Positions 40,468 through 64,000 of a DNA stretch of 64,000 nucleotides are shown one piece after another (position 1 is the stretch's first letter; each line of letters starts with the position of its first letter). The position numbers and the translations under genes are program-made. The notes beneath the pieces are model-generated. The model was given only the letters and a program-made list of their open reading frames with translations, was not told the origin of the DNA and made no database searches. Location: NCBI RefSeq assembly GCF_988243305.1, contig NZ_OZ547136.1. One strand, given 5' to 3'.

Positions 40468-40543
40468 TCCTCTGTAGTTCAGTCGGTAGAACGGCGGACT
40501 GTTAATCCGTATGTCACTGGTTCGAGTCCAGTCAGAGGAGCCA
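40468..40543 (+). tRNA. asnT: tRNA-Asn (GUU); integration site of the High Pathogenicity Island
   Basis: TCCTCTGTAGTTCAGTCGGTAGAACGGCGGACTGTTAATCCGTATGTCACTGGTTCGAGTCCAGTCAGAGGAGCCA. Confidence 0.95.
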
Positions 40544-40704
40544 ATTTTCTGTTTTCTTGCATCCTTGCGAATCTTTATCTGATGTTGATTCAACAGGTTA
40601 GTGTGAAAACTCTTCTCGGTGCATTTTGATTTTACCCTACGCATCGGGAAAAATTGGTGGTCAAATCTGGGGTCAGGTTAGTTCGATAATGGAGTGACCC
40701 CCAT

Positions 40705-61800: not shown

Positions 61801-64000
61801 CCGACGGGCAGCAGCGAATCCTGGCGACAACGCCGGAGTATCACATCCCGCGTGACGATCTGCGCGCGCTTTCCCCGGAAGAACAGCGCATCGCGCTGGA
61901 AAAACGGCGGCATGAACTGAGCTATCGCGTTTTGCCTGCCGACCAGTGGCCTCTTTTTGAGCTGGTGGTCAGCGAAATCGACGATTGCCATTACCGTCTG
62001 CATATGAACCTCGACCTTTTGCAGTTTGATGTGCAGAGTTTTAAAGTCATGATGGACGACCTGGCGCAGGTCTGGCGCGGTGAAACGCTGGCACCGCTCG
62101 CTATTACCTTCCGTGATTATGTGATGGCTGAACAGGCGCGCCGACAGACATCGGCATGGCACGATGCCTGGGATTACTGGCAGGAAAAACTGCCGCAACT
62201 GCCCTTAGCGCCAGAGCTGCCGGTGGTTGAGACGCCCCCGGAAACGCCACACTTCACCACCTTCAAATCGACGATCGGCAAGACAGAATGGCAGGCCGTG
62301 AAACAGCGCTGGCAGCAGCAAGGCGTCACACCGTCTGCCGCGCTGCTCACGCTGTTTGCCGCCACCCTTGAGCGCTGGAGCCGTACCACAACATTTACGC
62401 TGAACCTGACGTTCTTCAATCGCCAGCCGATCCATCCGCAAATCAACCAGTTGATTGGTGATTTTACCTCCGTCACGCTGGTTGATTTTAACTTCTCAGC
62501 GCCGGTGACGTTGCAAGAGCAGATGCAACAGACCCAACAGCGCCTCTGGCAAAACATGGCGCACAGTGAAATGAACGGTGTTGAGGTGATCCGTGAGCTG
62601 GGCCGCCTGCGCGGATCACAACGTCAACCGCTGATGCCGGTAGTGTTTACCAGTATGCTGGGGATGACGCTGGAAGGCATGACTATCGATCAGGCGATGA
62701 GCCATCTGTTCGGCGAACCCTGCTATGTATTCACGCAAACGCCGCAGGTCTGGCTGGATCATCAGGTCATGGAGAGTGACGGCGAGTTGATGTTTAGCTG
62801 GTACTGCATGGACAACGTGCTGGAACCCGGCGCTGCCGAGGCGATGTTTAATGACTATTGCGCCATCCTGCAAGCCGTCATCGCCGCCCCTGAAAGCCTG
62901 AAGACTCTCGCCAGCGGCATCGCCAGGCACATTCCCCGCCGACGCTGGCCGCTGAACGCGCAGGCGGACTACGACCTGCGGGATATTGAGCAGGCGACGC
63001 TCGAATACCCCGGCATCCGGCAGGCCAGAGCGGAAATAACCGAACAGGGCGCGTTGACGCTGGATATCGTGATGGCCGACGATCCTTCGCCATCAGCGGC
63101 GATGCCTGATGAGCACGAACTTACCCAACTGGCGCTGCCGTTGCCTGAGCAGGCGCAGCTTGATGAGCTGGAGGCGACCTGGCGCTGGCTGGAGGCGCGT
63201 GCGCTACAGGGGATCGCGGCTACGCTAAATCGTCACGGCCTGTTTACCACGCCGGAGATCGCCCATCGCTTTAGCGCAATAGTACAGGCGCTGTCCTCGC
63301 AAGCGTCTCACCAGCGTCTGCTGCGCCAGTGGCTACAGTGTCTGACGGAAAGAGAGTGGTTAATCCGCGAAGGTGAAAGCTGGCGCTGCCGCATTCCGCT
63401 CAGCGAGATTCCTGAGCCTCAGGAAGCGTGCCCGCAAAGCCAATGGAGCCAGGCGCTGGCGCAGTATCTGGAAACCTGCATCGCCCGGCACGACGCCCTC
63501 TTCTCCGGGCAGTGTTCTCCGCTGGAATTGCTGTTCAACGAGCAGCATCGCGTTACCGACGCGCTGTATCGCGACAACCCCGCCAGCGCCTGTCTGAATC
63601 GCTATACCGCGCAGATTGCCGCCTTGTGCAGCGCAGAACGGATTCTGGAGGTTGGCGCCGGAACCGCAGCCACTACCGCGCCGGTGCTGAAGGCCACGCG
63701 GAACACGCGACAGTCGTACCACTTCACGGACGTCTCCGCGCAGTTCCTCAATGACGCCAGAGCCCGTTTCCATGATGAATCGCAGGTGTCTTATGCCTTG
63801 TTCGACATCAACCAGCCGCTGGATTTCACCGCCCACCCGGAGGCGGGTTACGACCTGATCGTTGCCGTCAATGTGCTCCACGACGCCAGCCATGTCGTCC
63901 AGACGTTGCGCAGATTAAAACTGTTGCTGAAAGCCGGCGGACGTTTGCTGATCGTTGAAGCGACGGAGCGAAACAGCGTATTCCAGCTGGCGAGCGTGGG
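55869..64000 (+). CDS. irp1: Yersiniabactin PKS/NRPS hybrid HMWP1, N-terminal ~2710 codons (runs off the window end)
   Basis: ATG at 55869 gives MDNLRFSSAPTADSIDASIVQHYPDCEPVAVIGYACHFPES... (KS with TACSSS and HGTGT, AT with GHSVGE, then downstream domains); open to 64000, so absent from the ORF track. Confidence 0.9.
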   Translation, partial: MDNLRFSSAPTADSIDASIVQHYPDCEPVAVIGYACHFPESPDGETFWQNLLEGRECSRRFTREELLAVGLDAAIIDDPHYVNIGTVLDNADCFDATLFGYSRQEAESMDPQQRLFLQAVWHALEHAGYAPGAVPHKTGVFASSRMSTYPGREALNVTEVAQVKGLQSLMGNDKDYIATRAAYKLNLHGPALSVQTACSSSLVAVHLACESLRAGESDMAVAGGVALSFPQQAGYRYQPGMIFSPDGHCRPFDASAEGTWAGNGLGCVVLRRLRDALLSGDPIISVILSSAVNNDGNRKVGYTAPSVAGQQAVIEEALMLAAIDDRQVGYIETHGTGTPLGDAIEIEALRNVYAPRPQDQRCALGSVKSNMGHLDTAAGIAGLLKTVLAVSRGQIPPLLNFHTPNPALKLEESPFTIPVSAQAWQDEMRYAGVSSFGIGGTNCHMIVASLPDALNARLPNTDSGRKSTALLLSAASDSALRRLATDYAGALRENADASSLAFTALHARRLDLPFRLAAPLNRETAEALSAWAGEKSGALVYSGHGASGKQVWLFTGQGSHWRTMGQTMYHHSTAFADTLDRCFSACSEMLTPSLREAMFNPDSAQLDNMAWAQPAIVAFEIAMAAHWRAEGLKPDFAIGHSVGEFAAAVVCGHYTIEQVMPLVCRRGALMQQCASGAMVAVFADEDTLMPLARQFELDLAANNGTQHTVFSGPEARLAVFCATLSQHDINYRRLSVTGAAHSALLEPILDRFLDTCAGLHAEPGQIPIISTLTADVIDESTLNQADYWRRHMRQPVRFIQSIQVAHQLGARVFLEMGPDAQLVACGQREYRDNAYWIASARRNKEASDVLNQALLQLYAAGVALPWADLLAGDGQRIAAPCYPFDTERYWKERVSPACEPADAALSAGLEVASRAATALDLPRLEALKQCATRLHAIYVDQLVQRCTGDAIENGVDAMTIMRRGRLLPRYQQLLQRLLNNCVVDGDYRCTDGRYVRARPIEHQQRESLLTELAGYCEGFQAIPDTIARAGDRLYEMMSGAEEPVAIIFPQSASDGVEVLYQEFSFGRYFNQIAAGVLRGIVQTRQPRQPLRILEVGGGTGGTTAWLLPELNGVPALEYHFTDISALFTRRAQQKFADYDFVKYSELDLEKEAQSQGFQAQSYDLIVAANVIHATRHIGRTLDNLRPLLKPGGRLLMREITQPMRLFDFVFGPLVLPLQDLDAREGELFLTTAQWQQQCRHAGFSKVAWLPQDGSPNAGMSEHIILATLPGQAVSAVTFTAPSEPVLGQALTDNGDYLADWSDCAGQPEQFNARWQEAWRLLSQRHGDALPVEPPPVAAPEWLGKVRLSWQNEAFSRGQMRVEARHPAGEWLPLSPAAPLPAPQTHYQWRWTPLNVASIDHPLTFSFSAGTLARSDELAQYGIIHDPHASSRLMIVEESEDTLALAEKVIAALTASAAGLIVVTRRAWRVEENEALSASHHALWALLRVAANEQPERLLAAIDLAENTPWETLHQGLSAVSLSQRWLAARSDTLWLPSLSPNTGCAAELPANVFTGDSRWHLVTGAFGGLGRLAVNWLREKGARRIALLAPRVDESWLRDVEGGQTRVCRCDVGDAGQLATVLDDLAANGGIAGAIHAAGVLADAPLQELDDHQLAAVFAVKAQAASQLLQTLRNHDGRYLILYSSAAATLGAPGQSAHALACGYLDGLAQQFSTLDAPKTLSVAWGAWGESGRAATPEMLATLASRGMGALSDAEGCWHLEQAVMRGAPWRLAMRVFTDKMPPLQQALFNISATEKAATPVIPPADDNAFNGSLSDETAVMAWLKKRIAVQLRLSDPASLHPNQDLLQLGMDSLLFLELSSDIQHYLGVRINAERAWQDLSPHGLTQLICSKPEATPAASQPEVLRHDADERYAPFPLTPIQHAYWLGRTHLIGYGGVACHVLFEWDKRHDEFDLAILEKAWNQLIARHDMLRMVVDADGQQRILATTPEYHIPRDDLRALSPEEQRIALEKRRHELSYRVLPADQWPLFELVVSEIDDCHYRLHMNLDLLQFDVQSFKVMMDDLAQVWRGETLAPLAITFRDYVMAEQARRQTSAWHDAWDYWQEKLPQLPLAPELPVVETPPETPHFTTFKSTIGKTEWQAVKQRWQQQGVTPSAALLTLFAATLERWSRTTTFTLNLTFFNRQPIHPQINQLIGDFTSVTLVDFNFSAPVTLQEQMQQTQQRLWQNMAHSEMNGVEVIRELGRLRGSQRQPLMPVVFTSMLGMTLEGMTIDQAMSHLFGEPCYVFTQTPQVWLDHQVMESDGELMFSWYCMDNVLEPGAAEAMFNDYCAILQAVIAAPESLKTLASGIARHIPRRRWPLNAQADYDLRDIEQATLEYPGIRQARAEITEQGALTLDIVMADDPSPSAAMPDEHELTQLALPLPEQAQLDELEATWRWLEARALQGIAATLNRHGLFTTPEIAHRFSAIVQALSSQASHQRLLRQWLQCLTEREWLIREGESWRCRIPLSEIPEPQEACPQSQWSQALAQYLETCIARHDALFSGQCSPLELLFNEQHRVTDALYRDNPASACLNRYTAQIAALCSAERILEVGAGTAATTAPVLKATRNTRQSYHFTDVSAQFLNDARARFHDESQVSYALFDINQPLDFTAHPEAGYDLIVAVNVLHDASHVVQTLRRLKLLLKAGGRLLIVEATERNSVFQLASV

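Follow-up and report, generated by a model that had tools for sequence, protein, structure and literature searches.

Positions 40545 to 64000 of the stretch analyzed here (64,000 nucleotides in all; the window) almost certainly represent the left three-quarters of the E. coli "high-pathogenicity island" (HPI), a horizontally acquired element for yersiniabactin synthesis and uptake. We base this identification on gene content, order, and integrity, the junction, domain architecture, near-identity to characterized proteins, and regulatory motifs, all observed in the sequence. It is supported by the tRNA and junction, near-identity to E. coli JE86-ST05, matches to PDB entries, Pfam domain orders, and regulatory motifs.

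The island is already known and ordinary in E. coli, as the earlier note recognized in calling it a well-described system and not a novel one: in a megablast search of 5426 complete E. coli genomes, 2234 (about 41%) contained at least 80% of positions 40300 to 64000, and island-positive genomes are annotated with the same gene names (int/ybtS/X/Q/P/A/irp2/irp1). The closest genome, JE86-ST05, covered this region completely, with 6 mismatches in 23,701 bases, and differed at 18 positions over the 40.7 kb upstream of the island region. The source strain thereby carries a recognized extraintestinal-virulence and fitness determinant, useful in typing and risk annotation; the island raises no new biological question.

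Insertion site and gene content

The island and its integration target comprise the following features.

40468-40543, plus strand: asnT, tRNA-Asn(GTT), the integration target of the island (ARAGORN; Rfam tRNA, 72.6 bits; K-12 synteny mtfA-asnT)
40528-40544, plus strand: 17-bp attL core CCAGTCAGAGGAGCCAA, made up of the asnT 3' end and 1 further base (one exact match in the window)
40705-41967, plus strand: HPI integrase, a P4-type tyrosine recombinase (420 codons open; initiation codon ATA in place of ATG)
42161-43465, minus strand: ybtS (irp9), salicylate synthase (TIGR03494, 682 bits, cutoff 325)
43493-44773, minus strand: ybtX, MFS transporter (RhtX/FptX-family match under the cutoff; RefSeq annotation of JE86-ST05)
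44766-46568, minus strand: ybtQ, ABC half-transporter, permease-ATPase fusion (ABC exporter-fold families; RefSeq annotation of JE86-ST05)
46555-48357, minus strand: ybtP, ABC half-transporter, 600-amino-acid form (PDB 6p6i chain A)
48524-49483, plus strand: ybtA, AraC-family activator (AraC-family helix-turn-helix matches; RefSeq annotation of JE86-ST05)
49674-55781, plus strand: irp2 (HMWP2), NRPS (Pfam: ArCP-Cy1-A-PCP1-Cy2-PCP2, with an MT-like insert embedded in A)
55869-64000, plus strand: irp1 (HMWP1), PKS/NRPS hybrid, partial (Pfam: KS-AT-MT-KR-ACP-Cy3-MT2)

Upstream of the tRNA gene lie fliA through fliR, yed genes, zinT, serU, and mtfA. The order serU-mtfA-asnT is common with K-12, and therefore the tRNA gene is asnT. 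BLAST homology to K-12 ends at 40544, the final base of the 17-bp core, and the left island junction is 40544/40545. The core matches exactly once in the 64-kb window, with 0 matches expected by chance, and it sits where an HPI carries it, at the left junction after integration into an asn tRNA gene at its 3' end. The earlier note had placed an HPI at the tRNA-Asn gene asnT; the tRNA call, K-12 synteny, and the end of K-12 homology bear this out. The G+C content is 0.493 over positions 1 to 40544 versus 0.586 over positions 40545 to 64000, with the step at about 41000; the published value for the island is 57%, and HPIs typically exceed the E. coli backbone at ~57 to 60%. Within the island, Rfam reported the tRNA alone and no further RNA family, and generic promoter and terminator scans stayed at background level.

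The canonical HPI has ybtS-X-Q-P on one strand and ybtA, irp2-irp1-ybtU-ybtT-ybtE, and fyuA on the other. We found this order from int through irp1 in the window, with every frame open, and saw the ybtU-ybtT-ybtE-fyuA part in JE86-ST05 only, beyond the window. The complete gene set claimed by the earlier note is present in canonical order for ybtS-ybtX-ybtQ-ybtP, ybtA, and irp2, but irp1 is cut at codon 2710 of 3163 (86%), its frame open to base 64000. Nothing that contradicts the identification of the island was found.

Comparison with HPI references, which the earlier note had proposed as a check, gave essentially 100% identity to the E. coli HPI. YbtS matches the crystallized Irp9 (PDB 2fn0, which we take to be the Y. 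enterocolitica protein) at 430 of 433 residues, leaving 3 differences. Residues 1 to 600 of YbtP align with residues 1 to 600 of PDB 6p6i chain A (1317.6 bits); PGAP calls a shorter ybtP of 570 amino acids in the JE86-ST05 annotation. Irp2 matches the HMWP2/Irp2 fragments 7ry6, 7jtj, and 5u3h with 1038, 982, and 232 bits, respectively. The domain orders are those of HMWP2 (ArCP-Cy-A-PCP-Cy-PCP) and HMWP1 (KS-AT-MT-KR-ACP-Cy-MT-PCP-TE), the final HMWP1 PCP (PCP3) and TE lying beyond the window; irp1 is full length in JE86-ST05.

Regulatory motifs and proposed working of the system

Four motifs were located on either side of ybtA.

48434-48452, plus strand: Fur box GTGAATAATAACCATTATC, in the divergent ybtP/ybtA promoter region (15/19 versus the Fur consensus)
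49515-49547, plus strand: perfect 14-bp hairpin just 3' of the ybtA stop codon (repeat search: 100% complementary, 5-nt loop)
49566-49599, plus strand: 12-bp inverted repeat ACCCGAAACGGG / CCCGTTTCGGGT upstream of irp2, candidate YbtA repeats (repeat search)
49611-49629, minus strand: Fur box GAGAATAATAATTATTAAC, in the irp2 promoter (15/19 versus the Fur consensus)

The operon promoters thus contain, as predicted sites, both the Fur boxes and the YbtA repeats that characterize an HPI. The upstream Fur box differs by a single mismatch from the ybtA promoter site of pESI that Fur has been shown to bind directly, and Fur binding to the irp2 promoter has been demonstrated in Salmonella pESI (PMC11225919). 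Operon leader sequences hold pseudopalindromic YbtA sites (PMC8725597); the inverted repeat upstream of irp2 is a candidate for these YbtA repeat sequences, and a nearly identical block was found in the fyuA promoter of JE86-ST05. The hairpin, followed by TCTTTCC, is the probable terminator of ybtA. From these genes, we infer that the island would be expressed and yersiniabactin produced.

Yersiniabactin synthesis begins with the conversion of chorismate to salicylate by YbtS. Salicylate is loaded by YbtE; HMWP2 (irp2), with the salicyl group held on its aryl carrier domain, condenses two cysteines and cyclizes them. HMWP1 (irp1) then contributes a dimethylated, reduced malonyl unit, followed by a third cyclized, methylated cysteine. 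YbtU reduces one thiazoline ring and YbtT edits (the genes for YbtE, YbtU, and YbtT lie outside the window), and the product is released by the TE domain of HMWP1, likewise outside the window. Metal-yersiniabactin re-enters the cell through FyuA, located in the outer membrane and encoded beyond the window, and through the ABC heterodimer YbtP/YbtQ, with YbtX as an accessory MFS transporter. Fe-Fur would repress expression through the Fur boxes, and the AraC-type YbtA together with yersiniabactin would activate it. The island itself arrived through recombination by the P4-type integrase into an asn tRNA gene; as published, it spreads within E. coli when flanking DNA recombines homologously.

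Integrase allele, right border, and mobility

As in other HPIs, a P4-type tyrosine integrase adjoins the tRNA gene. The earlier note's designation of a P4-like integrase stands: the protein has the three integrase domains (Arm-DNA-bind_3, Phage_int_M, and Phage_integrase) and shares 48.2% amino acid identity with the Int of phage P4 across 99% of the length, and the HxxR box and C-terminal Tyr are visible in its translation. The open reading frame placed at asnT by that note is intact but lacks a canonical start codon. ATA occupies positions 40705 to 40707, where copies in other E. coli and in Raoultella and Klebsiella have ATG; an in-frame TAA lies six codons 5' of it with no canonical start in between, and reading onward in frame, the first canonical start is the ATG at 40924. 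The exact 60-mer with the ATA start is found in 842 complete genomes, S88 among them, and other E. coli int alleles either start with ATG (76 and 537 exact matches) or are frameshifted.

AUA initiates at roughly 0.1 to 3% of the AUG level. It is unlikely, though conceivable, that ATA is kept as a very weak start giving a low level of intact 420-codon integrase, so that the allele would not be null. If so, a trickle of Int could act despite the loss of attR, for example, by binding DNA at attL, or could alternatively recombine with incoming HPI/ICE copies.

Two further ideas about the integrase were rejected. The integrase of [Erwinia] mediterraneensis also has ATA at this position, suggesting a conserved noncanonical start, but that copy breaks after 76 codons and looks like decay. 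A "phage" record (ON470583.1) with a 99.8% identical integrase suggested that the HPI integrase is phage-borne; the record is a serU-located lambdoid prophage, and its ends as deposited overrun into mtfA-asnT-int.

The rightmost ~8 kb of the island (3' end of irp1, ybtU, ybtT, ybtE, fyuA, and the right border) was viewed in JE86-ST05 only. In this near-identical genome, the rest of irp1 precedes ybtU-ybtT-ybtE-fyuA, as the earlier note anticipated. About 1 kb after fyuA comes a truncated yeeJ, with K-12 homology resuming 218 nt inside the gene. The 17-bp right-border repeat that the earlier note also expected is missing: JE86-ST05 has no second copy of the core, even with up to 3 mismatches allowed, and attR is thus absent. 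Published work gives this very absence as the hallmark of the HPI at asnT in E. coli, in which the right-border deletion constitutes the "fixed" form (PMC2606025). JE86-ST05 has just such a fyuA-side deletion, which takes away the direct repeat and some of the adjacent backbone.

An ICE-type HPI (ICEEc1 of ECOR31 or a UMN026/Klebsiella ICEKp-like element), still self-transmissible by means of a conjugative module and an intact attR past fyuA, would look the same from int through irp1, which both forms have in common, and its distinguishing right end would fall outside the window. ICE-type HPIs do occur in E. coli. However, JE86-ST05, the closest genome, has the short form: it lacks the attR that would pair with attL in an excisable element, its yeeJ is truncated, and the interval from fyuA to yeeJ contains no transfer genes. 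Moreover, the ECOR31 ICE is located at asnV, not asnT, and the integrase start codon is mutated in the window. We therefore regard an ICE-type island as extremely improbable.

Rather, the loss of the integrase ATG, together with the deletion of attR in JE86-ST05, probably leaves the island in this lineage unable to move as a site-specific element. Since ATA may still yield some integrase, this view leans chiefly on the deletion of attR in JE86-ST05. Immobilization through loss of the int start codon, together with the attR missing in the nearest relative, is mildly informative and fits the published picture in which the HPI now moves among E. coli through homologous recombination and not through its own integrase. 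Cotransfer of flanking DNA predicts that the yodB-less zinT-serU arrangement upstream would be coinherited with the HPI; both are present in 1217 genomes versus ~938 expected if independent (2234 x 2279 / 5426), a weak linkage.

The lost integrase ATG, the frameshifted int alleles of other E. coli, and the two nonsynonymous changes relative to JE86-ST05 (YbtX A424T and Irp1 G1530S) might be taken as signs that the whole cluster is a decaying, nonfunctional remnant with inactivated yersiniabactin genes. This is very unlikely: all seven biosynthesis, transport, and regulator open reading frames are free of stops and full length within the window (irp1 being open to the window end), their products are near-identical to crystallized proteins, and the promoter motifs are intact.

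Comparison with known systems

The window copy is like the E. coli asnT HPI (PAI IV of 536; PAI-asnT of CFT073, UTI89, and S88) in site, gene order, and, essentially, sequence. A composite query joining the zinT end to the island start was covered in UTI89 at 99.1% identity, and the right-border deletion of this form is the same in JE86-ST05. The differences are allelic only, the window copy having the ATA-start integrase allele.

The HPI of Yersinia pestis, Y. pseudotuberculosis, and Y. enterocolitica (ybt region of the pgm locus) resembles the window in its ybt/irp genes, Fur/YbtA regulation, 17-bp asn tRNA attachment core, and P4-type integrase, a comparison made on PDB protein sequences. 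Yersinia HPIs keep both direct repeats, use any asn tRNA gene, and are excisable, whereas in E. coli the island is fixed at asnT and lacks attR (PMC2606025 and, in part, general background). Among GTDB species-representative genomes, the attL junction 29-mer occurred at four loci (Klebsiella, Raoultella, [Erwinia] mediterraneensis, and a Martelella contig), none of them in Yersinia.

ICE-type HPIs (ICEEc1 of ECOR31 and Klebsiella ICEKp) share the int-ybt core with the window. Over the available int/ybtS part, Klebsiella pneumoniae ATCC 13883 is 97.6% and Raoultella planticola 99.5% identical, and the attL core is common to them. Unlike JE86-ST05, which has neither the module nor attR, the ICE-type form has a conjugation module, and its integrase starts with ATG.

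The pyochelin line of Pseudomonas aeruginosa (PchE/PchF) likewise makes a salicylate-capped, cysteine-derived thiazoline siderophore with Cy-domain NRPSs, but its cluster is distantly related, has no HMWP1-type PKS module, and uses other transporters. The best non-HMWP2 match to Irp2 is the dihydroaeruginoic acid synthetase in PDB 7emy (755 bits).

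Insertion site, gene content and prevalence

ARAGORN called two tRNA genes in the window, both confirmed with Rfam. The serU-mtfA-asnT order is identical in K-12, where yeeJ-yeeL-shiA follow, and thus identifies the tRNA-Asn(GTT) gene as asnT, bearing out the insertion site proposed in an earlier note. By BLAST, K-12 homology of the island-bearing locus stops exactly one base past asnT, at the final base (40544) of the 17-bp core CCAGTCAGAGGAGCCAA; G+C is 0.586 from 40545 onward versus 0.493 in the remainder of the window. The earlier note had also described a complete ybtS-ybtX-ybtQ-ybtP, ybtA, irp2, irp1 set: ybtS through irp2 are whole, but only 2710 of the 3163 irp1 codons lie in the window, with no stop in frame as far as its end at base 64000.

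Left boundary and genes of the yersiniabactin high-pathogenicity island (HPI)
39387-39476, minus strand, tRNA-Ser(CGA) (ARAGORN, Rfam)
40468-40543, plus strand, tRNA-Asn(GTT), asnT (ARAGORN, Rfam)
40528-40544, 17-bp core CCAGTCAGAGGAGCCAA, left junction
40705-41967, plus strand, int, 420 codons, ATA start
42161-43465, minus strand, ybtS
43493-44773, minus strand, ybtX
44766-46568, minus strand, ybtQ
46555-48357, minus strand, ybtP, 600-aa form
48524-49483, plus strand, ybtA
49674-55781, plus strand, irp2
55869 to window end, plus strand, irp1, partial

At least 80% of the segment 40300-64000 was present in 2234 of 5426 complete E. coli genomes searched by megablast. The best match, E. coli JE86-ST05, differs at 6 of 23,701 bases and carries exactly the same gene names; five of the mismatches fall inside genes, and two change amino acids (YbtX A424T and Irp1 G1530S). 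The intact open reading frames (ORFs) argue against a decayed remnant, which is unlikely. The yersiniabactin HPI at asnT is thereby confirmed as an observation and supported as an interpretation; it is a textbook accessory element, very common and already known.

The right border lies beyond the window and was examined in the 49.7-kb JE86-ST05 locus. There, irp1 reaches a full length of 9492 nt, and ybtU, ybtT, ybtE, and fyuA come after it, all as anticipated. The anticipated right-border copy of the 17-bp core is absent from this locus, even with up to 3 mismatches allowed. K-12 homology returns ∼1 kb past fyuA, 218 nt inside yeeJ, which in JE86-ST05 is a pseudogene with internal deletions. 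The island measures ∼31.5 kb in this strain, in agreement with the 30 to 32 kb listed for 536, CFT073, S88, and others. An ICE-type island is unlikely, as this structure of the nearest relative speaks against it. Loss of the fyuA-side border is the published hallmark of the E. coli HPI at asnT, which has been concluded to be fixed and to spread with its flanks via RecA-dependent homologous recombination (PMC2606025).

Predicted products and regulatory sites

Against the salicylate synthase equivalog TIGR03494 (cutoff, 325), YbtS reaches 682 bits; it differs from crystallized Irp9 (PDB 2fn0) at 3 of 433 aligned residues. Residues 1 to 600 of the YbtP ORF align with PDB 6p6i chain A; because this match begins at residue 1, the start of the RefSeq (PGAP) call in JE86-ST05 (19256-20968 of that locus; 570 aa, shorter than the solved form) is probably placed too far downstream. 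Irp2 matches the HMWP2/Irp2 fragments 7ry6 (1038 bits), 7jtj (982 bits), and 5u3h (232 bits). Its Pfam domains run PP-binding, Condensation (Cy1), AMP-binding with an embedded methyltransferase-like insert, PP-binding, Condensation (Cy2), PP-binding; in-window Irp1 reads KS, AT, methyltransferase, KR, PP-binding, Condensation (Cy3), methyltransferase, and the final PCP and TE of HMWP1 fall past the window end. These predicted orders correspond to the textbook architectures of HMWP2 and HMWP1.

The island would direct the assembly of yersiniabactin on a salicylate-primed NRPS/PKS line, FyuA and YbtPQ would take up the metal-bound siderophore, and the operons would be repressed by Fur and activated by YbtA. 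These pathway roles are established; combining them with ORF integrity and near-identity to characterized proteins, we infer that the source strain expresses the island and produces yersiniabactin.

Candidate regulatory sites (19-bp Fur sites scored against the Fur consensus)
48434-48452, candidate Fur box between ybtP and ybtA, 15/19 consensus positions
49515-49547, perfect 14-bp hairpin after the ybtA stop codon
49566-49599, perfect 12-bp inverted repeat ACCCGAAACGGG / CCCGTTTCGGGT upstream of irp2
49611-49629, candidate Fur box upstream of irp2, 15/19 consensus positions

The first Fur site is one base off the ybtA-promoter site of Salmonella pESI, where direct binding of Fur has been demonstrated, as it has for the pESI irp2 promoter (PMC11225919). 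The hairpin probably serves as the ybtA terminator. An almost unchanged second copy of the inverted repeat is found in the JE86-ST05 fyuA promoter. The repeat is a candidate YbtA repeat sequence, consistent with the pseudopalindromic elements described in HPI operon leaders (PMC8725597).

An integrase allele with an ATA start

The int frame encodes Arm-DNA-bind_3, Phage_int_M, and Phage_integrase domains (Pfam), and it shares 48.2% identity with phage P4 Int across 99% of its length, which justifies the label "P4-like" given to it earlier. The initiator-Met position is occupied by ATA (40705-40707), the rest of the ORF being intact. There is no in-frame ATG, GTG, or TTG between this codon and the TAA six codons upstream, and the next canonical start, ATG at 40924, would forfeit the arm-binding domain; a mechanical ORF list therefore gives int as 347 aa only.

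ATG stands at this position in E. coli FHI_NMBU_11 and AR_0089, as it does in the HPI copies of Raoultella planticola (99.5% identity over the available locus) and K. pneumoniae ATCC 13883 (97.6%).

Complete E. coli genomes with exact 60-mer matches around the int start codon
ATA allele, as in the window: 842
ATG allele, otherwise the same as the window: 76
ATG allele that carries a further change close by (AR_0089 type): 537

Another E. coli class reads ATG TTC, and its int is frameshifted. AUA initiation in E. coli reaches ∼0.1 to 3% of AUG (bioRxiv 10.1101/063800), and the ATA allele probably yields very little integrase. We found no mention of it in the searchable literature; it is a small allelic detail.

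ATA likewise occupies the start position of a related asn-tRNA-associated integrase in [Erwinia] mediterraneensis (1095-2502 of its locus; nucleotide identity, 84%); that integrase is interrupted after 76 codons, and no ybt genes come after it. The HPI left-end copy of FHI_NMBU_11 (NZ_CP045712.1, ∼4816700), with its ATG-start int, has an ABC-transporter pseudogene and no tRNA-Asn gene ahead of the 17-bp core, suggesting an HPI/ICE copy at a noncanonical site or a rearranged junction.

The flanking backbone

Upstream of the island, the JE86-ST05 annotation lists fliA, fliC, fliD-T, amyA, yed genes, fliE-R, rcsA, dcm/vsr, hchA, hprRS, msrPQ, zinT, serU, and mtfA. In the zinT-serU gap, 222 bp of unrelated AT-rich sequence (38718-38939) replaces the 995-bp yodB segment of K-12. 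This yodB-less arrangement occurs in 2279 of 5426 genomes, 1217 of them with the HPI versus ∼938 expected by chance, a modest excess. ON470583.1 ("Escherichia phage vB_EcoS-689R5") is a lambdoid prophage with serU as its integration site; its record runs on through mtfA and asnT as far as the integrase of the HPI, annotated there as a truncated 347-aa ORF. Thus, serU beside the HPI is a prophage/island hotspot in other strains; it is unoccupied in the window.

A short integrase pseudogene fragment between yedK and fliE (9238-9360), at the position of the K-12 intG remnant, was probably left behind by an old mobile element within the flagellar region. An intact OmpC-family porin gene annotated "ompC" (30746-31933) occupies the yedS position, a pseudogene in K-12; the neighboring drpB (29814-30096) is frameshifted in JE86-ST05. 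The core sRNA genes DsrA (21922-22008, minus strand; Rfam, 102.5 bits) and RseX (30345-30434, plus strand; 97.8 bits) are ordinary backbone features.
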